In this document: in pieces, positions 1,889-51,323 of the stretch
Position numbering within the stretch: the stretch's first letter is position 1
How the letters are laid out: every line of letters begins with the position of its first letter
Assembly (NCBI RefSeq): GCF_041248615.1
Contig: NZ_CP158426.1
DNA from: Escherichia coli
GTDB taxonomy: Bacteria; Pseudomonadota; Gammaproteobacteria; Enterobacterales; Enterobacteriaceae
DNA length: 64,000 nt
Direction: 5' to 3' (one strand)
Notes under the pieces: model-generated
The model's input: the letters and a program-made list of their open reading frames with translations, nothing else
Told to the model about the DNA's origin: nothing
The model's database searches: none
Position numbers and translations under genes: made by a program

Positions 1889-2653
1889 ATGAATAACTCC
1901 CCCCGCTACCCGCAGCGCGTTCGCAATGATCTGCGCTTCCGTGAACTGACTGTGCTACGCGTTGAGCGTATTAGCGCCGGTTTTCAGCGCATTGTCCTTG
2001 GCGGCGAGGCGCTGGACGGTTTTACATCGCGCGGCTTTGACGATCACAGCAAACTCTTCTTTCCTCAATCTGATGCTCACTTTGTGCCGCCAACGGTAAC
2101 GGAAGAGGGTATCGTCTGGCCGGAAGGACCACGCCCACCGTCGCGTGACTATACGCCGCTGTATGACGAACTACGCCATGAACTGGCGATTGATTTCTTT
2201 ATTCACGAAGGTGGCGTCGCCAGCAGCTGGGCAATGCAGGCGCAACCGGGCGATAAACTTACGGTGGCAGGTCCGCGCGGTTCGCTGGTGGTGCCAGAGG
2301 ATTACGCGTATCAGCTGTATGTCTGCGATGAATCCGGAATGCCCGCACTGCGCCGCCGCCTGGAAACGTTGAGCAAACTTGCCGTTAAACCGCAAGTTAG
2401 CGCACTGGTTAGCGTGCGGGATCACGCCTGCCAGGATTATCTCGCGCACCTTGATGGTTTTAATATCGAATGGCTGGCGCATGATGAGCAGGCGGTAGAT
2501 GCGCGTCTGGCGCAGATGCAAATCCCTGCCGATGATTACTTCATCTGGATAACCGGCGAAGGCAAAGTCGTTAAGAATTTAAGCCGCCGCTTTGAAGCGG
2601 AACAGTATGATCCACAGCGGGTACGTGCAGCGGCTTACTGGCACGCAAAGTAA
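1889..2653 (+). CDS. yqjH: Siderophore-interacting ferric reductase YqjH (NfeF)
   Basis: 254-aa ORF; FAD-binding siderophore-interacting protein family; K-12 synteny. Confidence 0.9.
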   Translation: MNNSPRYPQRVRNDLRFRELTVLRVERISAGFQRIVLGGEALDGFTSRGFDDHSKLFFPQSDAHFVPPTVTEEGIVWPEGPRPPSRDYTPLYDELRHELAIDFFIHEGGVASSWAMQAQPGDKLTVAGPRGSLVVPEDYAYQLYVCDESGMPALRRRLETLSKLAVKPQVSALVSVRDHACQDYLAHLDGFNIEWLAHDEQAVDARLAQMQIPADDYFIWITGEGKVVKNLSRRFEAEQYDPQRVRAAAYWHAK

Positions 2654-2660
2654 CTGATAT

Positions 2661-2700
2661 ATAAAAAGAAAAAGGCTGATGATTTCTCGTCAGCCTTTGC
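2661..2700 (-). terminator. Hairpin plus T-run (minus strand) immediately 3' of the tRNA fragment; likely the original ileX terminator, also closing yqjH
   Basis: aaaggctgatga / tcgtcagccttt stem with T-run on the minus strand (A-run 2661..2670 on plus). Confidence 0.5.
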
Positions 2701-2706
2701 TATATC

Positions 2707-2753
2707 TGGTGGCCCCTGCTGGACTTGAACCAGCGACCAAGCGATTATGAGTC
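2707..2753 (-). repeat. attR: displaced 47-nt 3' fragment of tRNA-Ile2 (acceptor/T-arm/anticodon-stem 3' side)
   Basis: Matches 43/47 nt of the intact tRNA at 51123..51169; homology stops abruptly at 2753. Confidence 0.85.
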
Positions 2754-2879
2754 ATGAGGCAAGTTCGTTCTATATTGTTTTTGTTTGTTCGTGATTGCTT
2801 TATTAGTTGTTTGTAATCAATAAATTATGTGATTTTCCCTGTCTCCGCTTGGTTCCGTTTTTTCTTCATTGTACGATCG

Positions 2880-2903
2880 TTACCTGACCCATTACCTGAC
2901 CCA
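2880..2903. repeat. 24-bp direct repeat TTACCTGACCCATTACCTGACCCA (left copy), 47 bp upstream of int
   Basis: Identical 24-mer at 51043..51066; contains an internal tandem of ACCTGACCCA. Confidence 0.8.
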
Positions 2904-2949
2904 AAATCACGAGTTATTCTGATTGTTACTGGTTTAGAAAAGAGGTTCT

Positions 2950-4266
2950 ATGGCCGTCAATCTTACTGAAACAGCCATCCGAGCATTGAAAGCAAAAAAG
3001 ACATCGTTCTATGTCTGGAGCAACAGCTCTCAACGTGGCACTGGACGACTTGGTGTCAAAGTTCAGCCTTCTGGCAGCAAGATTTTCTATTTCCGCTATT
3101 ACGTGGAAAAAGGGAAAAAAGAAAGATTCATTCAATTGGGTATATGGCCTGAGATGAAACTGGCCACAGCGAATGAACTGGCAAAAAAGTATGGTGCCTG
3201 GCTCATTGAAGGAAAGGCTCCCCAGGCAGAACTGGAACGACAACAGTTTGCAGAACAGCAGCGGATACAACTCCATCAATCACAGGGCTCATTTGAAGCA
3301 TTGATTCATGGTTATGTTAACAAAATGAAAATTGATAATAAGAGGACATGGCAGGATGTTCTGAAACGCCTTGAAAATGAATGCTATACAGTGATCCCCC
3401 GTGAAACTAAAGCTAAAGATGTGACTTCCGGACAGATTAAACATATCCTGGCCGGGATCATTCAGCGCGGTGCTGTGGTTCACTCTAACCGGATCCGTTC
3501 TTACCTGATGGCTGCATTTAACTATGGACTGAAAGCAGATAACGATCCGATGAACACAAGTGTAGGGATTACTTTTGGGCTGGAGGCAAATCCGGTGTCA
3601 GTGATACCGAAACAGTCATCTGCTGAAAAAGTCGGTGATACCTGGCTGACACTTGAAGAGTTGCGTTTTCTAATGGAACATTTTGCTGAAGCAACCAACG
3701 TTGGATTATTGATGCAACATTTGATCCGATTCTGTATCTATACCGGAGGGCAACGTCCTTTCGAAATGATCGCCAGTCAGTGGTGTGATGTTGATTTTCA
3801 ACAAAAAACGCTGCTGGTGACTGCTGATGTCTCTAAAAATAAACGAGAGCATTTGATACCGTTGACTGAATCAGCATTACAGGAATTATCCTGTGTGCAG
3901 GAGTTAACAAAAGAAAAATCCAGCCCTTACATTTTTCCACTTTCGACTAATGGTAAGCGTCCGGTTCGTACGGACAGTCTGGCTCGCGCTATCATGTATT
4001 TCCGGGCTTTTAATCCTGACTTTAAAATTTTTACAGCACGTGACTTACGTCGGACCTGTAAAACGTTAATGGGAGAAGCTGGGATCAGTAAGGAAATCCG
4101 CGATCGTATTCAAAATCATGCGTTGAACGATGTCAGTTCAAAACATTATGATCGATACGATTATTTGCCAGAAAAACGCAGAGCACTTGAGATCTGGGAG
4201 GACCGGGTTAATAACTATCAACAGCAAACAGGCAATAATGTTGTCAATCTGTTTGGCAGAAGGTGA
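2950..4266 (+). CDS. P4-like tyrosine integrase (N-terminal arm-binding domain plus C-terminal catalytic domain)
   Basis: 438-aa ORF; N-terminus MAVNLTETAIRALKAKK...; C-terminal R...HxxR...Y catalytic residues (DLRRT, NHAL, SKHYDRYDY). Confidence 0.9.
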   Translation: MAVNLTETAIRALKAKKTSFYVWSNSSQRGTGRLGVKVQPSGSKIFYFRYYVEKGKKERFIQLGIWPEMKLATANELAKKYGAWLIEGKAPQAELERQQFAEQQRIQLHQSQGSFEALIHGYVNKMKIDNKRTWQDVLKRLENECYTVIPRETKAKDVTSGQIKHILAGIIQRGAVVHSNRIRSYLMAAFNYGLKADNDPMNTSVGITFGLEANPVSVIPKQSSAEKVGDTWLTLEELRFLMEHFAEATNVGLLMQHLIRFCIYTGGQRPFEMIASQWCDVDFQQKTLLVTADVSKNKREHLIPLTESALQELSCVQELTKEKSSPYIFPLSTNGKRPVRTDSLARAIMYFRAFNPDFKIFTARDLRRTCKTLMGEAGISKEIRDRIQNHALNDVSSKHYDRYDYLPEKRRALEIWEDRVNNYQQQTGNNVVNLFGRR

Positions 4267-4395
4267 GGGAGTTCCTGGTTGCTGTACGAATTGTGTACAA
4301 TTGATGGGTATTGTTGATGCACTTGGTTCTTGTATTGTTTACTATAATTATTGAGGTAAATTTTCGTGCCGGTATTACTCAGAGGGGATTCAAAA

Positions 4396-4992
4396 ATGGC
4401 TGTAATTCCAATGTCTTACTCCCCTGCTACTGTAGCTCGTCGTTTTTCGATACTGGATGGAGTAACTATTCAGGGCGTGCTTTACCAGATCATCTGGGAT
4501 CCAAAGACTCCGTTTGCTGCGGTAATCGAAGCTGCACCTTCTGTTATTGATGGTGATGTTCGCCATAAGGTTGTTGCCACTCTGGAGCTTCAGCGTCGTC
4601 CCCGGCTTGAAGGCGTGTTTGTCCAGAAATTCTGGGAAGAACAGGATGTTGCTCAGATTGAAGGGATTGTTGTCGATGGCGCTGTACGTGATGTTGGTCT
4701 TGCAACGTTTGTTTATGAAACGATAGTCACAAAAGCGGGCGTTGTACTATTAAGTGATAACGAGCAATATGAAGGAGGTAAAGCTCTCTGGCAGCATATT
4801 GCGCGTCGTTCAACGAATCTGAAGGTGTTTATTTTAGATACTGATTCCGCACGGTATTACCCGTTTGATGGCGAACGGATCAGTTATGACGGGAAAAGCA
4901 TCCCGGAATCAGAAATCTGGAGTGAACATCCTGAGCGAAACAGACACGCTGTCGTTCTTGTGGCTGAATCTGTTAATGGTAAAGCCGCATAA
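4396..4992 (+). CDS. Hypothetical protein (198 aa from ATG 4396; ORF open from 4366)
   Basis: Long ORF with plausible RBS (gagggg) upstream of ATG 4396; no recognisable motif. Confidence 0.45.
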   Translation: MAVIPMSYSPATVARRFSILDGVTIQGVLYQIIWDPKTPFAAVIEAAPSVIDGDVRHKVVATLELQRRPRLEGVFVQKFWEEQDVAQIEGIVVDGAVRDVGLATFVYETIVTKAGVVLLSDNEQYEGGKALWQHIARRSTNLKVFILDTDSARYYPFDGERISYDGKSIPESEIWSEHPERNRHAVVLVAESVNGKAA

Positions 4993-5074
4993 TTTGCTGA
5001 GTGTCTCATTTTTTGAGATCTTGCTGGAAAGTCTCCTTTGGGGATAGCGAACTGCTATCCCCTTTCTCAGTGAG

Positions 5075-6679
5075 TTACTGTTCGACCAGACATTTTCCCC
5101 ATAAAGGTCGTATCGAGTATCTATCTTCGCTATATGGATTTATTTTATTTTTTTCCCTCTGTGCTATCAGCAACGTGTCGATCTCATCCTTAATAATGTG
5201 TTGAACTGCTTGACGGTAACGGTTAAGCGAAGTGTCACTGATATCTTGTGGAAGTTGTAGACTGCCATCTGCCTTGACAAGTTCATTCACACCATCTTTA
5301 ATTCTGCGTCCCTGACCATCAGGTATACCTTCATTCAGATCATAGCCTTTTAGTCCTGCAAGACGAATATTCACGTCAATCTTTTCTGTACGTATCTTTT
5401 TGTTACTTACCAACAGAATTTTATTGGCGTTATACCATTTTTCAAATATTTCCAGTTGTTTCATGATGTTTGTGAAGTTATTCAGTTCGCTCCTGAATTC
5501 AATAGATTTTCTAATTTTACGCTCTTTTGCATCAATGTTTATTCCTGGATAATTTATTTCCATTTTTAACGGTTCTGTGTATGCCTGTTGCAGGCAATCA
5601 GCAAGATTCATTGCTGCATCCTGCAGGGTATTGGTATAAATCAGTTTCAGAAGTTCATCACGCTGTATAGTGATTTGACAATAGTCTTTTTCCCATGCGG
5701 TGGTGTTTTCAATCGTGTCACTTTCATCGGAAATAATTGTTGTGAACTTCCAGGTGTAACGAATAAAATCATTTCCTTTAAAATATTGCACTAATTTATT
5801 TAACCATTCATATATTTCCAGAGCATAAAGTTTAACGTATCCATCATATATTATCTTTGTTGCATTTTTGTTGGCTAGCGAAAACATTTTGTCCACGAAT
5901 TCTGTACGCCCGATTGTTAGCAATTGTTTTCTAAGTTTACTCACATCGTTAGTATCTGGTTTCTCACAATTCCAGGGACTTTTGTATTCATTTTCAAAAG
6001 GAGAAAGCCATTCAGGAATCTCTGTTTCTGAGTGATAGCAGTTGTTAATAGCCAAACCAAGGGTTCTGGCAAGTATCGCTGATTCATCAATTTGATGGTA
6101 TCGGTTCAGTTGTTCCAGTAATTCTTTAGTACATGAGTGCGCAACAGAAAGATCCTGATGGCAATATCCTTGTCGAACCAGAGCGGGAAGTGGTGAGCAA
6201 TGAGCTTTACAATCTGTCAGAATATTGAACAAATCGTTTCTGACGAATTCTTCCATCTCAGGTGTTTTCCAGCCACCACTATTTTGGCCGACAAATTTTG
6301 CTGTTGGTTCCCTGTTCATATCTCCCCAGGTTTTCAGGCTGACGAGTCTGTTATCAAAACCATTGTATAAATGGCACATAACCTGAAAAGCAGCATACAG
6401 ATCTTTAGATAGTGGATTATCGGTCTCACTTATGGAGTAGTTCTCTCTGTTTTTCTCTAAAATACTTTGGAGTTTTGTGTTAGCGCGTAATGCCGAGAGA
6501 ATCCGATGTTGTTCATCAAACCAAGGACGATATTCTGGATCCAGATACAATCTGCGTGCTTTGAAAATGAGTAGAAGCAACTGTTCGGAAACAGCTTCAT
6601 GTATGTGGGGAAACGGCATGGAGGTGCCGGATAAAACACGATAGTACGGGTGGTTTGTTTTTACCTTTTTAGTTACCAT
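5075..6679 (-). CDS. Hypothetical 534-aa protein, AT-rich orphan; candidate accessory or defence gene
   Basis: 1.6-kb uninterrupted ORF in strongly AT-rich DNA, where chance ORFs this long are improbable; no Walker A, HTH or nuclease motif identified by eye. Confidence 0.55.
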   Translation of the reverse strand: MVTKKVKTNHPYYRVLSGTSMPFPHIHEAVSEQLLLLIFKARRLYLDPEYRPWFDEQHRILSALRANTKLQSILEKNRENYSISETDNPLSKDLYAAFQVMCHLYNGFDNRLVSLKTWGDMNREPTAKFVGQNSGGWKTPEMEEFVRNDLFNILTDCKAHCSPLPALVRQGYCHQDLSVAHSCTKELLEQLNRYHQIDESAILARTLGLAINNCYHSETEIPEWLSPFENEYKSPWNCEKPDTNDVSKLRKQLLTIGRTEFVDKMFSLANKNATKIIYDGYVKLYALEIYEWLNKLVQYFKGNDFIRYTWKFTTIISDESDTIENTTAWEKDYCQITIQRDELLKLIYTNTLQDAAMNLADCLQQAYTEPLKMEINYPGINIDAKERKIRKSIEFRSELNNFTNIMKQLEIFEKWYNANKILLVSNKKIRTEKIDVNIRLAGLKGYDLNEGIPDGQGRRIKDGVNELVKADGSLQLPQDISDTSLNRYRQAVQHIIKDEIDTLLIAQREKNKINPYSEDRYSIRPLWGKCLVEQ

Positions 6680-7458
6680 AATGTTAAATTCTTCCGTCTA
6701 TTGCATAGCTGTTTCCAGTAGAGAAACTTGATACAGTCCTTTGTCAGGACATTGATACAGAGTTAACAGCCTCTACGAAATGGGAATCAGTTATGCAGTG
6801 GCATTATACGATGCTGAATCTAATACGATATCCTTAGCGTTTATTCCTGATTTTTTTACGAGCATTCCCTTTTGTTGCATATTGCTCAGGACGCAAATGA
6901 TTTTACGGTTATAGCCCTCTACAGTCACGTCACTTTCATCTGAAAATATGTATCGTTTTCATTCAATTATTATCTTTTGTCTGCACTTTAGCTTTAGAAA
7001 GTTGGCAAAAATCAACTCCCTCTTACAAGTTCTATTATCGCCAGAAGATAATTTTGTGAACTTCGTCACGTTTTCAAACTAATGTTGTGGGGGCTTTTCT
7101 GGGGAGAATTTTTGGTCACTACCCCTCCTCTTGATATCATAGATTATAACAAGATTTTTTTTGTTTTTGTCTGCATAAAATAACCTACGAATATTGTGAT
7201 TTTGATTTTTATTTTGTATACCAAAAAGCATTGTTTAAGTTATTTTTATATTGTGACTTTCTTTGTTGTTATTGTGTTATTAGAAGTCAGTTAATTAAAT
7301 CATTTCTCGCAATTTGATTTCTTGGTTGTGCAAATGTATTGTTTTGCTCGTGAGTTGCTGGTGCTGTTCAACAGCATACCACTACAGATAGATGTAGTGA
7401 TTTGAGCAGCTCACATGCATATACAATCTGAAAATCATGAATATATAAGGAGAGCAAT

Positions 7459-7686
7459 ATGTGGAAGCCGTTAAGAGATGAGAACCGTTTATCAATTTTG
7501 AAGATCTATGGATACACCTGTGACAGACTGGTACGAGAAAAGGAACGCCAGAAAATTACGTCTATTTCTCGTTCACAAGCCTGGAAACTGGAACGTGAAG
7601 GAAAATTCCCGCCACGTAAAACTATTGGAAAGAAATCCTGTGGGTGGTTATTAAGTGATCTATTGTGGTGGATTAGTCAGTATTAA
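7459..7686 (+). CDS. AlpA-family phage regulatory/excisionase-like DNA-binding protein
   Basis: 75 aa; AGGAG RBS; HTH plus EREGKFPPRK..G.....W...L..W motif typical of AlpA/Phage_AlpA. Confidence 0.7.
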   Translation: MWKPLRDENRLSILKIYGYTCDRLVREKERQKITSISRSQAWKLEREGKFPPRKTIGKKSCGWLLSDLLWWISQY

Positions 7687-7748
7687 CCTTATAGTATCAG
7701 AATAATATATATTTCTATATTTTAATTTTATAATTAAAAAGGAGTTTC

Positions 7749-8495
7749 ATGATGAAACGTGTCTCTTTCTCTCTTGCAGAAACATATGAAGCTGATGTAA
7801 TTAAAAAGTATCAGCATTTAAAAAAATGCTCATTTTCAGCAGCGATTAAAGAGTGTTTAAAGCTAGGGGCTCCTGTTTTAAACAGGATAAATGAAAATAT
7901 TGCTGCTATAACTGATATAGAGGATAAGCTACGTCAGTTTTTTAATGAGGAACCATTTGTGCAACGGACAAAGCCTGAAATAACAAAAGGAGAGTTTTTT
8001 CATAGCATTTATAAATCGCATATCAAATATGAATATGATGTTCTCGATAGAAAGATATTTCCTCATGAAAGCACCAGAAATGCTATGGGAGTTGCAGAGA
8101 AAAAGGGAATTAAAGAGAATGCGACCTTAATGCTGGAATATTATAAAGTTGAGAAGGCAATTTGTATTTACACGAACAGAAAAGTTTCCCATACCCTGAA
8201 TCGTGCAGGAGGGTTTTATAAAACCATTCTGATTAAAACCAGTGTTTTTGGGGATTATTTTTTTGACTTTTGCAATTCAGTTTGCCTGCCGATAGATGAG
8301 TTGATTGAGTATGGTACGAAAGAAACAGTGAGGCGACATCAGATTCGTAGTACAGGATTTTGTACTTTTCATATTCCGATTTTTTATATCAATAATAAGG
8401 CTGTAATAGTGCCTGTTCTGAGAACAGAGGAAGTTTCACAAAGTTCCAGAACAGGTGGAGATGTTATTATTATTAACCCATTTGAAGATGAATGA
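7749..8495 (+). CDS. Hypothetical 248-aa protein (possible N-terminal ribbon-helix-helix-like segment)
   Basis: ORF with AAGGAG RBS in AT-rich DNA; N-terminus KRVSFSLAETYEADVIKKY resembles RHH regulators; remainder unassigned. Confidence 0.5.
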   Translation: MMKRVSFSLAETYEADVIKKYQHLKKCSFSAAIKECLKLGAPVLNRINENIAAITDIEDKLRQFFNEEPFVQRTKPEITKGEFFHSIYKSHIKYEYDVLDRKIFPHESTRNAMGVAEKKGIKENATLMLEYYKVEKAICIYTNRKVSHTLNRAGGFYKTILIKTSVFGDYFFDFCNSVCLPIDELIEYGTKETVRRHQIRSTGFCTFHIPIFYINNKAVIVPVLRTEEVSQSSRTGGDVIIINPFEDE

Positions 8496-8716
8496 TTATG
8501 GCCCGCGTAGATTTATTCATAACCCAGAAATCGTGGTGTAAATGATGAACAGAAACCGCTTTCTGAGGTTAAAGAGAGCAATCATTACCCGGGAGTGGCC
8601 AACTCTTTTATCGAGTACTTTTCCGATGTATCTGGAGAGCCTCCCTTAGAAAAGAGTAATGCGACTCAGGAAAAAACAGGTTCAATAATTAATTCATGAC
8701 ACCAGTTTGAGGCATT

Positions 8717-9277
8717 ATGGCGAGTTTTGCATACATAGACTCTGAAAAATGGTCAAAACTTAATCGCTTAAAATCCATGATTCAGAGATATTTTAAAGAA
8801 CCACTATTGCAGTTAACAGGCGAATTGGGTCGCCCGGATTATACTCTGGCAGACAGAAAACGGTTAGTTCGACTCCTGACGCAGGATATGCAAAGGGGTG
8901 ATATTCTGATTACTAAATCGTTAACTTGTTTTGGTAATACGCCGGAAAAAATACAGGAGGTTTTATCTTTAAGTATCAGACAAGGTATTAATATTTGCTT
9001 TTTTACGTCATCAGAGTTGCCGGATGGTGATGATATTCCTGTGGTACTCACCGGGATGATTTTACCTACAGATATTAGAGGAAAAATTCCCGACATCAGT
9101 ATCCGGAAAATTAAAAGAAAACCAGGAAGGAAAGAAGGGAGTATTCATAGTAAAAATATCAGACAGTTGAAATTGCAGGGGTTCAGTCAGTCACAAACAG
9201 CCAGAAAATTAAGCATCAGTTTATCCACTGTAAAAAGACACTGGGATAAAGGTATTGTTGATCTAACTGCAGAGTAA
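8717..9277 (+). CDS. Small serine-recombinase-like protein (resolvase/invertase size and layout, divergent)
   Basis: 186 aa; N-terminal YIDSE segment, central GDILITKSLTCFGNTPEKIQEVLSLSIRQGINICF resembling resolvase core, C-terminal HTH (SQSQTARKLSISLSTVKRHW). Confidence 0.4.
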   Translation: MASFAYIDSEKWSKLNRLKSMIQRYFKEPLLQLTGELGRPDYTLADRKRLVRLLTQDMQRGDILITKSLTCFGNTPEKIQEVLSLSIRQGINICFFTSSELPDGDDIPVVLTGMILPTDIRGKIPDISIRKIKRKPGRKEGSIHSKNIRQLKLQGFSQSQTARKLSISLSTVKRHWDKGIVDLTAE

Positions 9278-9658
9278 CATTTTATAGTCCTTGTAGCTAT
9301 TGGCAATGGAGTTATAAATACATGTGCGTTGGATAGGTAATATATATTATATCTGTGATGTATAGTATATGTGTAATGATGGATATGATGTACTAATAGA
9401 GCTAATGGTATTCTGATACCAAATAATTAGTTGTGTGTAGATCATAACTCTGTTTAATGTTTTAGAACGTTCTAATGTAACTGTGTAACATCATCCTGTT
9501 CTCTAATGTAACAATAGGCAGTAGCGTTTTTCTTAATTGACGCCCAGAGGGTTATATATCCCTCTGGGAACTACTGATACGAATATTAATATCTGCTTCT
9601 GTTGTGTATTGGGTAGGTTAACTATTAGCTTATCTCTGAAAGCAAAAGGAATATTAAC

Positions 9659-10273
9659 ATGATTACGATTGAAACTCTTTACGGTGAATGTCATGAGGCT
9701 CACGGGTTAAAAATAAGAAACCAGGTGAATAACCTCTTCCAGAAACATCCCAGAATAACGGCAATACGGGTGGATCTCCATTATCCTCCCGTGATTGACA
9801 ACGGGGATACCATTACCTGTTTTCCTAACCTGAGTCCCGGAGAGATATCTCGTTTCCGTAACTCGCTGAATGCGAAAATTAATGCAGATCAACACCGTAA
9901 AAAACAACAAGGCAAACGCACCTACGCAACGTCGGTTTGTATTATCTGGGCGAAAGAATATACGCAGTCCTTTAAATGTCATTATCACGTCTGCCTTTTT
10001 TTTAACAAAGACGCCTATTACCACCTGGGAGACTATGAGCGCTCTGACACCCTGAGAGGGTTAATTACCGGAGCCTGGTACAGTGCCTTAGGGTTAGAAC
10101 TGGAAGATCACCAGGGACTAGTTCATTTCCCTGCTAATGGACGTTACATCCTGGATATTAACGATCCTGATTTCCCTGAGCAATATCAGCGCTTATTGGC
10201 ACGTCTGGATTATCTGACGAAGCTCGACACTAAAGCATCAGGCCAGCGTAACTTTGGCTACAGCGGTTTTTGA
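9659..10273 (+). CDS. HUH-motif protein (rolling-circle Rep-like / YagK-YfjJ inovirus-Gp2-like family)
   Basis: 204 aa; HUH-type motif CHYHVCLFF and downstream Y-x-x-K (DYLTK); family assignment from memory only. Confidence 0.45.
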   Translation: MITIETLYGECHEAHGLKIRNQVNNLFQKHPRITAIRVDLHYPPVIDNGDTITCFPNLSPGEISRFRNSLNAKINADQHRKKQQGKRTYATSVCIIWAKEYTQSFKCHYHVCLFFNKDAYYHLGDYERSDTLRGLITGAWYSALGLELEDHQGLVHFPANGRYILDINDPDFPEQYQRLLARLDYLTKLDTKASGQRNFGYSGF

Positions 10274-10300
10274 CCTATTGTAACTGTAAGGTGATTTATT

Positions 10301-10867
10301 ATGTATACAGAATCAAACGTTAAGCTTTCCTGTAACGCCCTCTGGCAAAAGTATGTCCTTGCAACTCTGTATCGGGCTGCAGCTACACATCCTAAAATTA
10401 AATTATTACAATTTAAATTAATACCTTGCCCAGGTATGAACAAGGCAATTCCCTCTCTGATGGCTGATTTTACTGGTGAACTGCATAGACTAATTTCTGA
10501 ATATTTGCAGTGCAAGCGACGTAAAGATAAATCTGTTGAGCCCGCCCCTTTATATTATCTCTGGAGTAGGGAAGCTGTGGCTAACGATACCACTCCTTAT
10601 CTTATGGTACTGCTACTTAATAACGATGTCTGGTGTAAGAGTCGTGAGGTGGTGGCTCTCAGAAATCTGATTGAGCAGGCGTGGGGAAAAGTATTGGGTG
10701 AAGATAACTCCATTACACATCTGGTTGTGTATCCTGAAGTGCTGTCGTTGGTATTTGATGCAGCTAACACATACAACGCTGAGCCTGGTGTACTGGAACA
10801 GACGGCCCAGGCTTACATTGAATCGCATGGTGCCATTGAACGTCATCTTGGGTGTAGTGACTTTTAA
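10301..10867 (+). CDS. Hypothetical 188-aa protein, probably co-transcribed with the HUH gene
   Basis: ORF 27 bp downstream of the previous gene with RBS taaggtga. Confidence 0.45.
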   Translation: MYTESNVKLSCNALWQKYVLATLYRAAATHPKIKLLQFKLIPCPGMNKAIPSLMADFTGELHRLISEYLQCKRRKDKSVEPAPLYYLWSREAVANDTTPYLMVLLLNNDVWCKSREVVALRNLIEQAWGKVLGEDNSITHLVVYPEVLSLVFDAANTYNAEPGVLEQTAQAYIESHGAIERHLGCSDF

Positions 10868-10977
10868 CGACGTCAGGTGATGCATAAGGGCCTTTCGCTG
10901 AGAGGCCCTGTTTACACAATTAAATAAGTCGAGCCCGACCAGCAATTTTGACGTTGACGGCAGGATTATTGAGGGGC

Positions 10978-11062
10978 AATCAATGTGTTCTTCGGCAGCG
11001 ATTACGGTAGTGAACGGACCTGCTGTCTGAATGGTATCGATCCGCAAGCGTATCTGCGCCAT
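10978..11062 (+). mobile_element. IS66-family transposase (TnpC) 3' remnant, truncated by IS2
   Basis: In-frame translation FFGSDYGSERTCCLNGIDPQAYLRH resembles the conserved IS66 TnpC C-terminal region; ends at the IS2 boundary. Confidence 0.35.
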
Positions 11063-12151
11063 TGGATTTGCCCCTATATTTCCAGACACCTGTTATCACT
11101 TAACCCATTACTGGCCCGCTGCCGTAGATATTCCCGTGGCGAGCGATAACCCAGTGCACTATGCGGATGCCATTCGTTATAATGCTCGAACGCCTCTGCA
11201 AGGTTCTTTGCTGCCGTTAACCCGTCTGGTTTGGGCATGATACTGATGTAATCACGCTTTATCGTTTTCACGAAGCTCTCTGCTATGCCGTTACTCTCCG
11301 GACTCCGCACCGCCGTGTTCTTCGGTTCAAGTCCCAGCATCCGGGCGAACTGGCGTGTTTCATTAGCCCGGTAGCATGAACCATTATCCGTCAGCCACTC
11401 CACTGGAGATGTCGGAAGCTCGCTGCCGAAGCGGCGTTCCACCGCTCCCAGCATGACGTCCTGTACTGTTTCACTGTCGAAGCCGCCCGTAGTGACCGCC
11501 CAGTGCAGTGCCTCACGGTCACAGCAGTCCAGCGCGAACGTGACCCCCAGTTTTTCTCCGTTATCACAGCGGAACTCGAACCCGTCAGAGCACCATCGTT
11601 GATTGCTTTCTTTCACGGCCACTTTGCCAGTATGTGCCCGTTTCGATGGCGGTACAGCGGTTTTTCGCTCAAGCAACAGCGCATTCTGGCGCATGATCCG
11701 GTAAACACGTTTGGCATTGATAGCAGGCATACCATCAAGTTCGGCCTGTCTGCGAAGCAGCGCCCATACCCGACGATAACCATACGTGGGCAGCTCTCCG
11801 ATAACATGGTGTATACGGAGAAGCACATCCGTATCATCTGAGTGACGGCTGCGGCGACCATCTTTCCAGTCATCGGTTCGTCTGAGAATGACGTGCAACT
11901 GCGCACGCGACACCCGGAGACAACGGCTGACTAAGCTTACTCCCCATCCCCGGGCAACAAGGGAGACCGTCATTCCCGGTTCAAAGCTCTGCTGAACAAT
12001 AGCGATCTTTTCCTGTGTAGTACGCCGTCTGCGTTTCTCCGGCCCTAAGACATCAATCATCTGTTCTCCAATGACTAGTCTAGAAACTAGTATTAAGACT
12101 ATCACTTATTTAAGTGATATTGATTGTCTGGAGATTCAGGGGGCCAGTCTA
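11063..12151 (-). mobile_element. IS2 deletion derivative (about 1.09 kb instead of 1.33 kb)
   Basis: IS2 terminal sequences at both ends (revcomp TAGACTGGCCCCCTGAATCTCCAGACA at 12122..12151; TGGATTTGCCCCTATATTTCCAGACA at 11063); internal deletion of about 240 bp. Confidence 0.85.
11074..12105 (-). CDS. IS2 transposase, in-frame InsC(N-terminal 36 aa)-InsD fusion created by the internal deletion
   Basis: 343-aa ORF: [36 protein letters not shown] joined directly to [18 protein letters not shown]... (InsD). Confidence 0.7.
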
Positions 12152-27190: not shown

Positions 27191-28744
27191 TTACGCCATA
27201 AACCAGTAATAAAAGAGACCGACTTTCAGGCCAAGGATCACAATGTAGGCACAGCAGTATTTCATGGTGCCAGACATGATCTGATTGGCCTGACCGTCCA
27301 TTTTGGTGGCAGAAACCGCGATGGCGATGCTTTGCGGCGAAATCATTTTGCCCCCCGTAGCGCCAGAGGTATTGGCCGCCGCCAGCCAGTTGGGATCGAT
27401 ATGTAACTTGCTGGCAGCTATGGTTTGCAGCTTGCCAAACAGAATGTTCGAGTTGGTATCGCTGCCGGTAACGAACGTGCCCAGCGCGCCAATCACCGGG
27501 GCGAGGAAGACGTACGAGCTGCCGGTCAGATCGACAATCGACTGCGCCAGTGTGGAGATAATCCCGCTGAGATCCATCACCGTGGCCAGCGCGACGATCG
27601 CCATAATTGCCACGATAGAGTTTTTAAGCTGGAAAATCGTTTTGATAAATACTTCCAGCATCCCGCGTGCGGACGCTCCCTGAATAAAACCGCCGATAAT
27701 GGTCGCAAAGATAATCAGCATCCCTGGTGTGGTCACCCATTCAACTTTCAGTGCCATCGTTTTGCCGTCAGCCAACGTGAAATGCAGCACCGAAGCCAGT
27801 TGGGATGCCGCGCCTTTTATTGTCGGAAACAGCGGCGAACACAGCAGGATAAACACAAAAATAAACAGATAGATAGAGCCCACGCGGAACAACACTTTTG
27901 CCGAGCGCGGCGTGGTTTCGCGGGTATGGCTGACCTCAATGCGCCACTCTGGATCGGTTTTCCCTTTGCGCAGGCGACTGACCATCGCCACGGCAAACAG
28001 GCTGACCAGGCTACCGGCAAAAGCGGGTAATTCCGCGCCAAGATGGATGGCGACAAAATATTGCGGAATCAGCGTGGAAATGCCGCAAATCAACGTGATC
28101 AGAAATACGCCGCGAATGGCTTTCAGGCCACCGCCAATAATGCAGACAATCACAAACGGCAGCAGGATATTAAACAGCGCGAGCTGCAAAATAATGGTTC
28201 CGCCTAAGGTATAAACCGGCAGATTAACCTGCTCTGCCAGAATAGAAACCGGGATCCCAACCGCGCCAAATGCGGTCGGAACGGTATTTGCTACGAGGGA
28301 AGCAATCGCCGCCTTCAACGGGTTGAATCCCAGCGCAATGAGAATACCGATCGGAATAGCGACCGCCGTGCCATAGCCCGCAGCGGCTTCAAGAAATCCA
28401 CCAAAACACCATGAAATCAGCAGCACCTGAATACGCTTATCTTCGCTAATGCTGGCGAGAATATCGCGCAGAATATCCAGCGCTTTGGTCGCCTGCATGA
28501 CGTTATAACTGAAGATAGCGCCGAGGATAACAATTACGATCGGCCATAGTCCCTTCAGTGCACCATAGCCTATCGCGGCTTTCAAATTTTGTACGGGCAT
28601 TTCCCAGAATATTGCCGATAGTGCAGCGGTGAATACCAAAGAGATCAGTACGGAATAATGGATGGGCATTTTTAATTTCAGTATTAAAAATACCATCAGC
28701 AGCAAAGGAGAGAGTGCCAGAGCAAACATTAAATATTCGTGCAT
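27191..28744 (-). CDS. Lactate permease (LctP family)
   Basis: 517-aa polytopic membrane protein with LctP-family conserved segments; divergent from the dld-like gene. Confidence 0.8.
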   Translation of the reverse strand: MHEYLMFALALSPLLLMVFLILKLKMPIHYSVLISLVFTAALSAIFWEMPVQNLKAAIGYGALKGLWPIVIVILGAIFSYNVMQATKALDILRDILASISEDKRIQVLLISWCFGGFLEAAAGYGTAVAIPIGILIALGFNPLKAAIASLVANTVPTAFGAVGIPVSILAEQVNLPVYTLGGTIILQLALFNILLPFVIVCIIGGGLKAIRGVFLITLICGISTLIPQYFVAIHLGAELPAFAGSLVSLFAVAMVSRLRKGKTDPEWRIEVSHTRETTPRSAKVLFRVGSIYLFIFVFILLCSPLFPTIKGAASQLASVLHFTLADGKTMALKVEWVTTPGMLIIFATIIGGFIQGASARGMLEVFIKTIFQLKNSIVAIMAIVALATVMDLSGIISTLAQSIVDLTGSSYVFLAPVIGALGTFVTGSDTNSNILFGKLQTIAASKLHIDPNWLAAANTSGATGGKMISPQSIAIAVSATKMDGQANQIMSGTMKYCCAYIVILGLKVGLFYYWFMA

Positions 28745-29174
28745 TACAATTCCCGATTTACTTTTTTAGACTGAGCTATATTTATGGGGAAGGAAGCTAC
28801 CTGAATAATAAAATAAAAAATGCTAACTGAATCGCTTCAGTGAAATAAAGTTATAAAGGTTAATAATTGTATAAATAATGTTATTTTTTTATTAAATATG
28901 AATAACCACTAAATATTACAACACCCATTAGAGTTAATCATTAATAGGTATGGGATGATCTTTGCAATAAATAAGTGTTTTGGCATCCCCTCAAAGGGCG
29001 AGGTATGAATTATATGGCGGTGGTAATTTCATTAAAAAATGTGAGCGGTACCGAAAGAAATAAAATGGGGTATTGCATGTGGATATTGATTGAGGGAATA
29101 TTCTGCTTTGTCATACAAATGAACTTATAGCCATTTTCACTGGCCCTGATATAAGGAGCGGAGAGCCGCCCTCC

Positions 29175-35632: not shown

Positions 35633-38600
35633 CTAAATCTTTCCACCCACCCCCTTAAATTTTTCAATAAATGCGCTAATTTTTTGAAAAACAGTCTGTT
35701 TTTTCGTTTTATATTGCGGATTTAAAGGACTGAGTCTGGGCAGTGTCTCGTTTAATTCCGTGCCATTTTCGGTGGCGTATTCGCGTTTTAAAGATGTGCG
35801 AATATAGCGTTTCGCCGCCTCTTCATTGAGATTTTCTTCTTTGATCAAGGCTTCTGCTTCACGTTGCTGTTCGCGTTGAGCAAACGTAAAGAATGCGTCA
35901 ATGATGCTGGCTTTGTCCGGTAAATCATCCAGGTTCGTTTGCTGAATAAAATCGACCACCAGGCCCTCTTTAGCACGGTTCCCCAGGCTTGAACGAATTA
36001 AGCGTTTGACCTCTTCGATCATTTCGCTCTTACCTTTGTTTTGTCTGTTGTGCTCGAAAATCAGACCAAGGATATAATCCAGGTTTATTTCCTGAGATTT
36101 CAGCAAATCGACCTCAAAAACTACGTCATCCCAGTCAGTGGTTGATTTCTCTTTTTTCTCAGCTTCTTTCTCACGGCGCTGCCAGTCGCGAATATCGTTA
36201 TAGGCAGAACGATAATCCTGAATCTTGCGATCAGCAGGGAGACGAATTGTTTGCAATTCAGCGAGCTTTTCATCATCCACATAATGTTCTGCTTTGAATT
36301 TTTCTACTGCAACAGGATCGCTAAGATCGATTTGTTGCAGGGCTTTCAGCGTGGCAAATTCATCATAGTTTTGCAGGATGTTCTCGGCACGCAGGTATTC
36401 ACCAAACAGTTTAACGAAGTCTTTCTTCTCTTTTTCACTTTCAATACTGGCAGGGTCAGGGAACCGTTGTTCCAGTTCTGCAACTACTGCCATAAAGCCG
36501 CGCTTAGCTTCACCAGTAGCAGCATCAGTAAAGCCTTCCATATACTCTGCATAACTCTTTTCTAACACTACATTTTTGGTGTTTTTGTCACCAAACAGCG
36601 TTATGGCATCGATGGTTGAGCGTTCCAGATCGCGGAAAGTGACGATATTACCGAAGGTTTTAGTTGCATCATAAATACGGTTGGTGCGGGAAAATGCCTG
36701 CATCAGGCCGTGAAAACGCAAGTTTTTATCGACGAATAGCGTGTTCAATGTTGGAGCATCGAAACCGGTTAAAAACATCCCCACGACAATTAACAGATCG
36801 ATATCCTGATTTTTAACCCGTTGGGCTAAATCACGATAGTAGTTCTGAAAACCCTTACTGTCGGTGCTGAAGTTAGTTTTAAAATAGCTGTTATACTCAC
36901 GAATTGCAGCGTCAAGAAACTCTTTAGCACTGCTGTCCATTGCGCTGGTATCAAAAGTTTCATCGGATATTTCACCAATCGCATTTTGTTCTTCATTAGC
37001 GGCAAAGGAGAAGATTGTCGCAACACGCAGTGGTTTACAGGTAGTAGATTTATTAGCGGCTTCCTCTTGTAACCGTTTAAACGTCGCGTAATAGGCTTTC
37101 GCGGCATCCACGCTGCTTACTGCCAGCATGGCATTAAAACCTTTGGAGCCAGGGAAAGTACGGTGGGTTTTCTGGCGGAAATTATTCAGAATATATTGCG
37201 TGATTTCCTGAATACGCATGGGATGAAGAAACGCCTGCTGATTTTCAGCCGCACTTAGTTTTTTCTCGTCAGTTTCTGTCTCTAAAGACTTAAACTGTGG
37301 TCGCACATCGTTGTAGTCCACCTTGAATTTGAGCACTTTTTCGTCACGAATCGCATCGGTAATTACATACGAATGCAATTCACGACCAAATACGCTGGCG
37401 GTTGTTTCTGAGCCTAAGGCGTTTTCCGGGAAAATAGGGGTGCCGGTAAAACCAAACTGATAATAGCGTTTGAATTTCTTCTTCAGGTTTTTCTGCGCTT
37501 CTCCAAACTGGCTGCGGTGGCATTCATCAAATATAAACACCACTTGCTGATTATATACAGGCAGGTCGCTTTCTGCTTTCATCAGGTTATTGAGTTTCTG
37601 AATAGTAGTGACGATAATTTTGTTATCGTCCTTATCCAGATTTCGTTTAAGGCCTGCGGTATTTTCCGAGCCGTTGACGCTGTCTGGCGAAAAACGCTGA
37701 TATTCCTTCATGGTCTGGTAATCGAGGTCTTTCCTGTCGACCACAAAGAAGACTTTATCAATAAAGTCCAGCTCTGTTGCCAGACGCGCGGCTTTAAAGC
37801 TGGTGAGGGTTTTACCAGAACCGGTAGTGTGCCAGATATACCCACCGCTTTCCGGTTTTGACCAGTTCTTCGCTGTAAAGGAACTCTTAATTTTCCACAG
37901 AATGCGCTCGGTGGCGGCAATCTGGTACGGTCGCATCACCAGTAGCGTCTGACTACTGTCAAAAACGCTGTAGTTCACCAGAACATTCAGCAGAGTATGT
38001 TTCTGGAAAAAGGTAGCGGTAAAGTCTTTGAGGTCTTTAATCAGCGTGTTGTCTGATTTCGCCCAGTTCATGGTGAAGTCAAAACTGTTTTTATCGCGCT
38101 TTGTTGTGTTGGCAAAATAACGGGTATCGGTGCCGTTAGAAATGACAAACAGTTGCAGATACTTAAACAGAGAATTTTCGCTGTTAAAACTCTCTTTGCT
38201 GTAACGGTGTATCTGGTTGAACGCTTCACGAATCGCCACGCCGCGCTTTTTCAGTTCGATTTGCACCAGCGGCAAGCCATTAACCAGGATCGTGACGTCA
38301 TAACGGTTAGCGTGAGAGCCTGCCTGTTCAAACTGCTGGATAATCTGCACTTTATTGCGCATGAGATTCTTTTTATCTATCAAATAGATGTTCTCAAGAC
38401 GCCCGTCGTCAAAAATAAAGTCGCAGATGTAGTCGATATGAATTTTACGGGTTTTATCCAGGATGCCATCGCTCGGATTATCCAGAAACTGCTCCGTGAA
38501 ACGCCGCCACTCGCTGTCATTAAACACCACACCATTGAGGTTCTGAAGCTGTTCCCGAACGTTGGCCAGCATCGCTGACTGTGATTTTACGGGTATAAAT

Positions 38601-38749
38601 TCATAGCCCTGATTCCGCAGGTCCTGAATCAGTTCACGTTCCAGGTCCGATTCGCTCTGGTAGCTGTCGCCTGTTTGCTCAGCTTTGATGTACTTATCAA
38701 GAACGATAAAGTTATTGGATTCAGCAATGGTGTGTGTTTGATGAGTCAT
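35633..38749 (-). CDS. hsdR: Type I restriction enzyme R subunit (EcoR124-like, Type IC)
   Basis: 1038 aa; Walker A TTGSGKT, DECH box ([10 protein letters not shown]), helicase motifs; same length as EcoR124I HsdR (from memory). Confidence 0.9.
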
Positions 38750-38870
38750 AGCGCATCCTTTGTGCCGTCTGGCAAGGGTCGGAAGGGAGTTAATGGTGAC
38801 TTCCGGCGTGTAAAAAATAGTCTATATACAGACCGGATGTTAAGGTGATCCGGTCTGTAATAATGGTCAA

Positions 38871-40064
38871 TTAATTACTGACAGTTTCAGGTTTCGGGAA
38901 ACTGAACAGTAAATCACGGTAGTACTCGTATTGTTTCTGGCGTAACTCGATTTCACGCGGGAGACCTTCGGTGATGGAGTTGGTCAGGGTGTCGAATTTA
39001 TCGAGAATAGATACAATTCGTTTTTGTTCAGCTATGCATGGAATTGGGATTCGGAACTGTCTAAGATTTGTCAGATTGAGCATTCCATAGTTACGCATTT
39101 CAGATTTAAGTGTATTGTATAAATTTGTCAAGAAATAGAATATGAATTTATCAGTAATAATATTTTCTTTAGTGGACTTTATGCTGGCTATATTTTGATT
39201 GGTTGTTGCTTCAAACTCAAGAAATGCAGTTTTAAATATAGTTGCACCAACAAGTGCGATTAAAGTGGTATTCTTAGGAAGAAGTTTTGCAGTGGATTTT
39301 TTTAATCCTAGCTCGCTTATAAAATCTTTCGCAAAATAAACAGATTCATTATTACATGATTCCGATTTTAACCATGGAATTGACCCATTATCCCAGTATT
39401 CTGCTTTAGATTTTGAGGGGGTTCCTCCAGCGCAAATATGAAATAACTCTTCATTTCCCAAAGTTGTCCAATTAACCTCACCCTCTTTAAAACTCAACAA
39501 CTGGTCGCGATAGTAGTTGTACTGTTTTTTACGCATGTTAAGCTCAGCGGTAAGCTCAGCGGTAAGTGCAGTAAATTTATCCAGAATCCGAACGATTTCA
39601 GACTGGATGGCAAGGGACTTTTCCGGGTTGTCCGGACTAGGAATGGGAACTTTAAATCCTTCCAGCATGGGTTTTCTTATCGAAATGGCGGTAGCACCCA
39701 CACTTTTTGTCAAGATGTACTGCTTAAAGCTAGATGACATGAAGTAATACAAAAACTTCGTGTCTACGGCATTAGTTGTGATACGAATTCTATACGCCCT
39801 TTGATGTAGAGCATATTTCCCCTCAACATAGTGAAATATGTCGCCAATTCCACCTTCACCAGGAATGACTATTGCTACCTCATCAAATTCAAAGGTATCT
39901 GACTTCAAGATATTCTTTGAGCGAACATAGAATGGATAAATTCCATTTTCGCTTTCATCCTGACGATTTGAACTTCCAGTACCGATATCTGCCATAGAAC
40001 CCAATGTTACCCACTCAACCTCAACCCCATCCAACAGTTTTTCCAGATAGCTCAGCTCGCTCAT
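38871..40064 (-). CDS. hsdS: Type I restriction-modification specificity subunit (Type IC; two target-recognition domains with a TAEL-repeat central region)
   Basis: 397 aa; conserved N-terminus [18 protein letters not shown] and central ...[33 protein letters not shown]; second conserved repeat ...[16 protein letters not shown]... Confidence 0.85.
39541..39564. repeat. 12-bp tandem repeat x2 (agctcagcggta) inside hsdS, encoding TAEL-TAEL
   Basis: Two perfect adjacent 12-bp units followed by a diverged third unit (agtgcagtaaat). Confidence 0.85.
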
Positions 40065-41617
40065 TTCTGCACCTCGCAGCCTTCAATTTCAGCCACAATC
40101 GCATCAATATCTTTGCGCAACTGGTCGATTTTGCTGACCGTGGTTTTCAGTTCAGCATTCAGCTCATCGATATCGATAATTTCGCGGTTATCTTTCGCTT
40201 CCACATAGCTGCTCACCGACAGGTTATAGTCATTCGCGACAACGGCTTCGAACGCGACAGATTTTGCCAGATGAGCAACATCTTCCTTGCTGGCAAATAC
40301 CTGCATAATCTGTTCGATATGGGCATCGGTCAGGATATTGTTGTTAGTCTCTTTTTTGAACAGTTCGCTGGCGTCAATAAACTGAACTTTGGTATCCGTT
40401 TTATGTTTAGACAGCACCAGAATATTTACGGCAATGGTGGTGCCAAAGAACAGGTTCGGTGCGAGTGAAATCACGGTTTCGACATAGTTATTGTCGACCA
40501 GATACTGACGGATTTTCTGCTCTGCGCCGCCACGGTAAAAAATACCCGGGAAGCAGACAATCGCAGCACGACCTTTGGCCGAAAGATAGTTCAGCGCATG
40601 TAGTACAAACGCAAAGTCAGCTTTGGATTTGGGGGCCAGAACGCCAGCCGGGGCAAAACGTTCATCGTTAATCAGCGTCGGGTCATCGCTGCCAATCCAT
40701 TTCACCGAATACGGTGGGTTAGATACGATGGCGTCAAACGGTTTTTCATCTCTGAAGTGCGGCTCAGTCAGTGTATTACCCAGCTTGATATCAAACTTGT
40801 CGTAGTTGATATTGTGCAAAAACATGTTCATACGCGCCAGGTTATAGGTCGTATGGTTGATTTCCTGACCGAAAAAGCCTTCTTCGATGATATGGTTATC
40901 AAACTGTTTTTTCGCCTGCAACAACAGTGAGCCGGAACCCGCTGCCGGGTCGTAGATTTTGTTAACGCTGGTCTGCCCGTGCATAGCCAGTTGTGCAATC
41001 AGCCTGGAGACGTGCTGCGGTGTAAAGAACTCACCGCCTGACTTACCGGCATTTGCGGCATAGTTAGAAATCAGGAACTCATAGGCATCGCCGAACAGGT
41101 CAATCTGATGTTCGTTAAAGTCGCCAAGCTTTAACCCTTCAACCCCTTTCAGAACCGCAGCCAGGCGGGCATTTTTATCCTTAACGGTGTTACCCAGGCG
41201 GTTACTGGTGGTATCGAAATCAGCAAACAAACCTTTGATGTCTGCTTCTGAAGGGTAGCCGTAAGCAGAACTTTCGATAGCAACGAAGATGCTGTTTAAA
41301 TCTGCATTCAGTCTGTCATTGGTATTTGCTTTCGCAGCTACGTTGCAGAAAAGCTGACTGGGGTAGATGAAGTAGCCTTTGGTTCTGATGGCATCGTCTT
41401 TAATGTCATCAGTAATTACGCTGTCATCCAGTTTCGCATAACAGATACTGTCATCACCGGCTTCAATATAACTGGAAAAATTTTCGCTGATAAAACGGTA
41501 GAAAAGTGCGCCCAGAACGTATTGCTTAAAATCCCATCCGTCAACAGAACCTCTGACATCATTGGCAATTTGCCATATCTGGCGGTGCAGTTCTGCTCGT
41601 TGTTGAATACTTGTCAT
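40061..41617 (-). CDS. hsdM: Type I restriction-modification N6-adenine DNA methyltransferase subunit
   Basis: 518 aa; motif [11 protein letters not shown], motif IV NPPY (SNPPYSVKW); stop overlaps hsdS start. Confidence 0.9.
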
Positions 41618-41880
41618 TTTTAATCCATTTTCCTGGTTTGGACCTGAATCATTGAGGGCAATTCTACAGCAATCTTGTGGTTCAGGCAGCCCCGGAGTAA
41701 GTCGGTGTACATTGTGAGATACCTGGGGTATTCACGACAAGGAGGAGGAACGGAATATTGCCTTTCCTTTGCAGTGCACCAGGTGCATTCTAAATAATTT
41801 CAGACAGATATTATCTCCGTGAATCCCCCGCCACCTTTCCGGTGCGCGGGGTTTTGTCTTTTTTCACCGGGAATACATGT

Positions 41881-51122: not shown

Positions 51123-51198
51123 ATGGTGGCCCCTGTTGGGTTTGAACCAACGACCAAGCGATTATGAGTCGCCTGCTCTAACCACTGAGCTAAGGGGC
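51123..51198 (-). tRNA. ileX: tRNA-Ile2 (anticodon CAU, lysidine-modified), attL side of the island
   Basis: 76-nt cloverleaf GGCCCCTTAGCTCAGTGGTTAGAGCAGGCGACTCATAATCGCTTGGTCGTTGGTTCAAACCCAACAGGGGCCACCA with encoded CCA; K-12 position between mug and yqjH. Confidence 0.9.
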
Positions 51199-51323
51199 CA
51201 TGGTAGCGGATTATAAAGTAACTCCGTGTCGCAATCCAGCCATTACCGCGCGCCTGCTGTTTTTATAAACAATGTATTTTCAATCCGTTATACTTTTCCT
51301 GGTGATGTTAGAAAGGAGTAAAT

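Follow-up and report, generated by a model that had tools for sequence, protein, structure and literature searches.

At positions 5075..6679 of a 64,000-nucleotide stretch of Escherichia coli DNA (RefSeq assembly GCF_041248615.1, contig NZ_CP158426.1; the window, in what follows) lies a minus-strand gene with an ATG start, the core gene of its family, whose product is an orphan protein of 534 residues. Comparison of this large protein and its genomic surroundings with those of its homologs suggests that it could be the constant core of an undescribed, modular conflict system borne by mobile genetic elements (MGEs), most likely one of anti-phage defence; we give this reading about an even chance. 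RefSeq labels the product hypothetical protein (WP_000256688.1). The gene is the biggest within a low-GC island, the segment from 3 to 11 kb having a GC content of 0.34–0.45 against ~0.55 in its flanks. The initial annotation of the window had given the gene these same limits and this length and had called it the largest unassigned gene of the island; both statements hold.

An orphan family

To what is the large protein related? No match to it was found in Pfam, NCBIfam, PHROGs or the sequences of the PDB, nor among the PADLOC-DB v2 HMMs at E-values up to 0.01. The Pfam scan of 25 family members was equally blank, and a search of the PDB sequences with the family profile gave noise only. An exhaustive phmmer search over 1.84 billion cluster representatives returned just 39 matches, many of them fragments; a word-indexed search of 5.8 billion clusters returned 20, and a second, profile-based homology search added no further members. 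With one genome taken per species, ~100,000 species contained 10 loci, distributed over nine genera of the Enterobacterales and Photobacterium. The large gene found no tblastn match in 50,697 phage genomes. Searches of the literature and its supplements by accession and by sequence string turned up no mention of the family's proteins, and the hotspot and island papers searched for this locus held nothing specific. The initial annotation had held that homology to a characterised non-defence family would speak against its proposal of a defence role; none was found. We conclude that, as far as these searches reach, the family is small, previously undescribed and without known relatives.

Fold and conserved residues

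The AlphaFold2 model of the whole protein has a predicted local distance difference test score (pLDDT) of 78.9 and a predicted template modelling score (pTM) of 0.80; for residues 1–300 the values are 89.3 and 0.83. Against AFDB50, Foldseek retrieved solely uncharacterised members of the same family and two remote uncharacterised proteins. Since the model is confident and no characterised structure matches it, the predicted fold is one that lacks precedent in current structure libraries.

The N-terminal domain (residues ~1–300) is all-alpha and contains the invariant residues E32, Q33, R42, D109, R169, Y172 and H174. It is followed by an alpha/beta middle region (~300–400) of lower model confidence and by a basic C-terminal region (401–534; isoelectric point (pI) 9.0) with invariant D447, S481, R487, Q507, P525 and W527, where a non-canonical helix-turn-helix (HTH) is possible. 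All of these residues, and W310, are unchanged down to 18% identity. Conservation is blocky: segments 16–60, 151–195, 331–360, 406–450 and 466–510 are kept, with strongly variable stretches between them. The earlier statement that the protein has no recognisable motif thus holds at the level of the databases (Pfam, NCBIfam, PADLOC, PHROGs and the PDB) but not at that of single residues, given the invariant R169-x4-H174 together with E32, Q33, R42, D109 and Y172.

Small divergent partners

If the large protein is a constant core, what varies around it? Outside Escherichia the large gene is always paired with clade-specific small proteins, encoded divergently on the opposite strand across a region of 270–375 bp. 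In clade B (~42% identity; Klebsiella, Enterobacter, Buttiauxella, Siccibacter, Pantoea, Pectobacterium and viral contigs) the divergent gene encodes an acidic protein of 145–153 residues, with pI ~4 and 31–32% D+E; it is present in 9 of 9 distinct contexts and 60–82% identical among them. The divergent operon of clade C (Citrobacter, Atlantibacter, Photobacterium and others) encodes a protein of 88–93 residues and a hydrophobic, Gly/Ala-rich protein of ~105 residues. The latter is 74–85% identical across loci whose large proteins are at 22–37% identity (L006:7344-7667, L007:2274-2588, L016:5891-6217, L045:1261-1560). Some other members face a small sigma-70-region-4-like HTH protein or a further family of acidic partners (L040/L044). 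Searched against the NCBIfam, PADLOC and PHROGs libraries, the partners fell into no assigned family, the weak matches being to PDC-M09A and to the sigma-70-region-4-like HTH.

Because they lie on the opposite strand, the partners are never co-transcribed with the large gene, in which they differ from the co-transcribed small partner of a type II-like toxin–antitoxin pair. A conserved small divergent partner in every non-Escherichia clade also makes doubtful the single-gene effector that the initial annotation had proposed. None of the known partner families was found at the Escherichia loci. A hidden partner in the intergenic region of the window (6680-7458) was considered and rejected: no small open reading frame (ORF) there is conserved between E. 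coli alleles, and none gave a tblastn match to any partner family.

Two observations on the partners stand by themselves. The conservation of the Gly/Ala-rich protein is unusually high for a small protein, even if low complexity inflates it. And an inverted repeat, GCGAGG-N7-CCTCGC, is conserved ~20–45 nt upstream of the start codon of the acidic partner (L031:6484-6530 and aligned clade-B loci; alignment A4, columns 19–45), with an apparently compensatory GGAGC/GCTCC in Pectobacterium; it may be a hairpin of the 5' untranslated region or an operator.

Genomic contexts

In Escherichia the large gene is flanked by int and alpA in the CP4-57-type islands at nfeF; it is found at the thrW/proA site as well, where the integrase is absent. 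The equivalent slot of the K-12 island CP4-57, which also bears AbpAB and RnlAB, is occupied by yfjH; YfjH was tried as a relative of the large protein and discarded (hhalign probability 0.4%). A 41%-identical homolog in Klebsiella occupies the space between S and V, two tail genes of a P2-like prophage; that the P2 late genes contain a defence hotspot is reported in a recent preprint (10.64898/2026.02.27.708500). The family also occurs on an IncFII plasmid, flanked by insertion sequence (IS) elements and with a type II restriction-modification system and a DUF4145 protein nearby. It is found, too, where another prophage ends, beside umuDC (assigned by reading the ORFs), and between a pPIWI-RE system and a HEPN_LA2681 protein. 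The clade-C copies occupy small chromosomal islets beside mnmE, without a recognisable MGE.

Among the immediate neighbours of the family PADLOC recognised GajA (E 1.8e-269) and GajB (E 8.8e-230) of Gabija, AbiO/Nhi (E 4.9e-173), a type II methyltransferase (E 1.5e-182) with its restriction endonuclease (E 8.3e-176), an EcoRII-type restriction endonuclease (E 1.9e-234) and a restriction-enzyme-like AAA protein (E 2.7e-18) that is McrB-like by its sequence motifs. Type II restriction-modification neighbours occur at two loci. As a raw count made by hand, a recognised defence system lies within ~5 kb in 7–8 of ~17 distinct contexts. Judged from these annotations, the family recurs beside defence genes in unrelated flanks, which is the pattern sought in guilt by association. 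The defence role that had been proposed from size and context accords with cargo slots beside Gabija, AbiO/Nhi, type II restriction-modification, EcoRII and pPIWI-RE; the nuclease-type activity proposed along with it is taken up below.

At two of the prophage-end loci (L031:10676-12379, L032:11783-13486), ~2 kb from the family member, there is a gene for a 447-residue protein with a Gly/Ser/Asn-rich N-terminus, followed by a hydrophobic ORF of 113 residues. By sequence, the two look like a bacteriocin–immunity pair.

The intergenic region and its palindrome

The large gene and the divergent alpA have in common an AT-rich intergenic region at 6680..7458 (779 bp, GC 0.34). It is the longest ORF-free gap of the window, the runner-up having 381 bp, just as the initial annotation had described it. 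Is there a signal in it that the family conserves? When k-mers were counted without bias in 19 upstream regions drawn from all clades, TTGTGAT/ATCACAA stood out, with 21 occurrences against 2.8 expected (z 10.5) in 13 of the 19 loci. The element maps to a perfect palindrome, TGTGA-N6-TCACA, extended to TTGTGAT-N4-ATCACAA. It precedes the start codon by 14–42 bp in clades B and C and by 305–352 bp in two other E. coli alleles. Of the 46 fetched loci, 18 have a single copy each of the 12-base pattern TGTGAT-N4-ATCACA, in every case upstream of the large gene and nowhere else. The window has the palindrome with one mismatch, TGTGAACTTCGTCACG, at 7055..7070, a position homologous to that of the perfect boxes in other E. 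coli alleles and in clades B and C.

What might bind there? TGTGA-N6-TCACA is the core of the CRP consensus, and CRP is present in all of the host genera. For these two reasons the cyclic AMP (cAMP)–CRP complex is the simplest candidate binder, and the palindrome, perfect in 18 of 46 loci and with one mismatch in the window, has the sequence expected of a CRP-regulon site near a promoter. Alternatively, the palindrome could be the large protein's own operator and serve autoregulation, the large protein being the sole component common to all clades. Invariant arms around a free spacer point to a site bound by protein on DNA rather than to an RNA hairpin; the latter is disfavoured, as the spacer varies and compensatory changes in the arms are lacking. 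On the minus strand at 7048..7077 the palindrome falls within the spacer of a promoter-like sequence, TTGAAA-18-AATTAT, a match to consensus only; such matches are no commoner in the region than in shuffled sequence, and the promoter and terminator scans of the region both gave chance-level numbers. Two direct repeats with a ATATTGTGA(T/C) half-site lie 57 bp apart, at 7191-7213 and 7248-7270.

Prevalence and selection in E. coli

Complete E. coli genomes with the allele of the window, or with diverged alleles of it, numbered 433 by megablast; with a second allele as query, an intact large gene was found in ~679 of 5426 (~12.5%). E. coli O157:H7 carries an allele of 537 residues at the identical site. 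The 198-residue neighbour of the large gene is present in 693 E. coli genomes and the island integrase in 438.

By the Nei–Gojobori method the ratio of nonsynonymous to synonymous divergence (dN/dS) of the large gene is 0.23–0.45. This is purifying selection, weaker than that on int (0.05–0.08), on the 198-residue neighbour (mostly 0.06–0.19) and on alpA (~0.1–0.2 at informative divergence). A degraded pseudogene, the other finding that was to count against the initial annotation, is not what is seen: hundreds of genomes have the gene whole, and the selection on it is purifying. We conclude that it is real and selectively maintained. Between the window and locus L008 the synonymous divergence (dS) is 0.12 for int and 0.05 for the 198-residue gene; it rises to 1.16 for the large gene and 1.77 for alpA, and this jump places a recombination breakpoint between the 198-residue gene and the large gene.

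Proposed role and its rivals

How might such a system work? The large cytoplasmic protein would be a sensor or switch, possibly binding DNA through its basic C-terminal region, and the interchangeable small partners would be its effectors or modulators: the hydrophobic Gly/Ala-rich protein a membrane-active effector, the acidic proteins inhibitors or adaptors. The palindrome would be the point at which host cAMP–CRP, or the large protein itself, gates expression. In the E. coli version found in the window, where dedicated partners are absent, the large protein would act alone or through the genes that face it, alpA and those after it. This division into sensor and effector we hold with less than even confidence. 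A still broader version seems to us quite unlikely: a new class of immune sensor-switch, in which a large, cytoplasmic, helical protein detects infection and acts on interchangeable divergent small effectors (a glycine-zipper membrane protein, acidic adaptors or, where the island is of the CP4-57 type, the excision operon of alpA), possibly with a death-fold-like oligomerisation bundle, its expression tied to host physiology by the CRP box. Such a switch would link abortive defence to phage-triggered mobilisation of the island.

Several points weigh against a defence system. The large protein has no homology to any validated defence protein. About half of the distinct contexts are without a recognised defence gene within ~5 kb, and guilt by association does not distinguish a defence gene from one of counter-defence or of another MGE function. 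The similarity among the Gly/Ala-rich partners is inflated by low complexity. In Escherichia, moreover, the large gene is a fixed part of its island and not variable cargo, as the search with the window allele shows (433 genomes for the gene, 438 for the integrase), and its divergence history is that of alpA; both facts fit a role in the regulation of the island.

Could the large protein then be the island's master regulator? It would be a DNA-binding sensor-regulator of the divergent alpA operon, and hence of the excision and replication of CP4-57-type islands, controlling elsewhere whichever small operon it faces. Every Escherichia allele of the gene, like one member at 29% identity, is transcribed away from alpA. 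The gene's synonymous divergence follows alpA and neither int nor the 198-residue gene, and the gene is fixed in the island. To this may be added the conserved palindrome in the intergenic region that it has in common with alpA, the basic C-terminal region with its possible HTH, and the precedent of PIME1, whose excision requires a regulator encoded divergently from alpA. But the family is also found without int or alpA, in P2 late genes, at prophage ends, on plasmids and in chromosomal islets; Pfam scans detected no HTH, GerE or other regulator domain; one island has the large gene upstream of alpA and co-oriented with it; and host CRP explains the palindrome equally well. We think this regulator unlikely, though it is the main rival. 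A module for counter-defence, or otherwise of benefit to the MGE, we rate lower, as very unlikely: here the large protein and a highly acidic, possibly DNA-mimicking partner would help MGEs to beat the defences of hosts or competitors. DNA mimics of the Ocr/ArdA type are highly acidic, as is the partner, and carriage by prophages, an IncFII plasmid and islands is in keeping with the co-localisation of defence and anti-defence genes on MGEs. Yet the clade-C islets beside mnmE are not part of a recognisable MGE, known anti-defence proteins are usually small when set against 534 residues, and the partners match no family in the libraries searched.

The residues of the N-terminal domain invite a further question. 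Members of the HEPN superfamily have the motif Rx4–6H, and the large protein has R169-Q-G-Y-C-H174, with a spacing that fits and with R, Y and H invariant in 25 sequences down to 18% identity. It might accordingly be an HEPN-like RNase toxin, an abortive-infection effector that cuts RNA via R169-x4-H174, with the small acidic partners, antitoxin-like in size and charge, as its antitoxins. Neither fold nor profile backs this identity, and we have set it aside. The four-helix up-and-down HEPN fold, in which the motif starts the last core helix, was not found in the large protein, the Pfam scan of 25 members gave no likeness to HEPN, and hhalign against the HEPN_LA2681 protein returned a probability of 0.3%. 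We accordingly give the toxin little credence. Nor is the nuclease-type effector of the initial annotation supported, no nuclease fold having been found and R-x4-H being without support from fold or profile. A remnant without function, or an ORF arisen by chance in AT-rich DNA, would explain the missing annotation, the low GC content and some truncated copies in the databases, but full-length conservation from 100% down to 18% identity across ~10 genera, a dN/dS far under 1 and a confident structure prediction stand against this. The conservation and selection data effectively refute this reading.

If the large protein does belong to a defence system, it would be a new component, carried by about one-eighth of sequenced E. 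coli strains, O157:H7 included, that no current defence finder recognises. One conserved large protein combined with clade-specific small partners would be a natural experiment in separating sensor from effector, and a consensus CRP-type box would tie the expression of a mobile conflict gene to the metabolic state of the host. Should it instead regulate alpA, no control protein of the widespread CP4-57-type cryptic islands would have been identified before it.

The island and its other genes

At an identical E. coli locus annotated in RefSeq the order of genes is nfeF (yqjH), integrase, 198-residue hypothetical, 534-residue hypothetical, AlpA-type HTH, two hypotheticals and two inovirus-Gp2/YfjJ-type genes. 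The tyrosine integrase (2950..4266, plus strand) is inserted beside nfeF. The AlpA-family regulator or excisionase (7459..7686, plus strand) is divergent from the large gene and has the matching divergence history. Of the CP4-57-type order int-alpA-yfjI-yfjJ, the window carries int, AlpA and two Gp2/YfjJ-type genes; other alleles of the island add YfjI (DUF3987), and the order in K-12 CP4-57 matches.

The 198-residue protein (WP_000268404.1, phrog_7522; 4396..4992, plus strand) is encoded convergently with the large gene across a gap of 82 bp, an arrangement that the initial annotation had noted correctly. It is possibly GNAT-like: it has an RxxGxA motif of the GNAT acetyl-CoA-loop type (VRDVGLAT), the Pfam match to Acetyltransf_1 is at E 0.16 only, and one NCBI record calls it 'N-acetyltransferase'. 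Copies of its gene at 87% identity occur in plasmids and in the P1-like phage-plasmids Salmonella phage SJ46 and Escherichia phage RCS47, from both of which the large gene is absent. In E. coli the gene is tightly linked to the large gene, the two being present in similar numbers of genomes (693 and ~679), but its different recombination history and its presence by itself in these phage-plasmids show that the partnership is not obligate. Within the 82-bp gap, a GC-rich hairpin read from the sequence, GGGGATAGC-gaact-GCTATCCCC (5040..5062), is likely the transcription stop of the 198-residue gene; the terminator scan passed over it because of its weak T-run. Rfam gave nothing over noise on the island.

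Downstream of alpA, at 8717-9277, is the gene of a 186-residue protein with a C-terminal HTH like those of sigma-70 region 4 and resolvases (weak NCBIfam and PHROG matches), a putative regulator. The tandem inovirus-Gp2/YagK-YfjJ-type genes follow at 9659-10273 and 10301-10867 (204 and 188 residues); the first is apparently split in E. albertii (L034), and the pair may represent a replication-initiator-like island gene that has been duplicated or is decaying. In other alleles, a gene for a 'TOTE conflict system archaeo-eukaryotic primase' or for a DEAD/DEAH helicase lies downstream of yfjI/yfjJ (L019:13477-14597 in E. coli O157:H7; L014:133-2499), so that the distal cargo too is conflict-related.

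The right side of the island is cut by an IS3-family transposase (11074-12105). After it, to ~13600, come genes annotated in identical E. coli records as an alpha-galactosidase and a substrate-binding-domain protein, which we read as a raffinose-utilisation cluster. No direct repeats of an attachment (att) site were found within 2600-11400, and neither the right boundary of the island nor its att site was found. An 11.7-kb Salmonella 'plasmid' (CP101363.1), considered as an excised island, is in fact a linear chromosome fragment with aer, nfeR and nfeF. Further low-GC segments of the window at 28001-29000 and 36001-42000 (GC 0.37–0.47 against ~0.55) and a tRNA-Met at 51124-51199 may mark other horizontally acquired regions.

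Comparison with known systems

Which known systems come closest? PADLOC candidate PDC-M09, through its component A (PDC-M09A), gives a weak match to the glycine-rich segment of the clade-C Gly/Ala-rich partner (E 6.5e-7). This concerns a low-complexity stretch of the partner and not the 534-residue protein, and the partner is absent from the E. coli locus. With the HEPN abortive-infection RNases (RnlA/LsoA, the AbiD/F type and HEPN_LA2681) the large protein shares an invariant R-x4-H dyad in an all-helical domain and a context of defence islands. The six-helix death-fold bundles (pyrin/CARD) of immune signalling proteins are also among the closest known systems. Like SaPI Stl and the LuxR-type regulator of PIME1, the large gene is divergent from an alpA or excision operon over a long regulatory region with a conserved palindrome, and it has alpA's divergence history; its product differs from them in having no detectable GerE, LuxR or other HTH, in being much larger and in occurring without alpA or int.

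The accessory exclusion and defence genes of P2 (old/tin/fun) and of CP4-57 (AbpAB, RnlAB) are likewise standalone low-GC genes in cargo slots, either int-proximal or within P2 late genes. The hotspot genes of P2, P4-like satellites and CP4-57 are also swapped between MGEs and adjoin other defence systems, but they have no similarity to the large protein in sequence or structure. Unlike the cargo of the P2 and CP4-57 hotspots, the large gene is fixed in its island family in Escherichia. DefensePredictor lists thousands of candidate defence families, many of which await testing. As a kind, then, the gene is a familiar one, an uncharacterised candidate defence gene in MGE cargo positions. The family is distinguished by a confident fold that is unprecedented, by a constant core with swappable partners, by a CRP-type box of its own and by its prevalence in E. 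coli.

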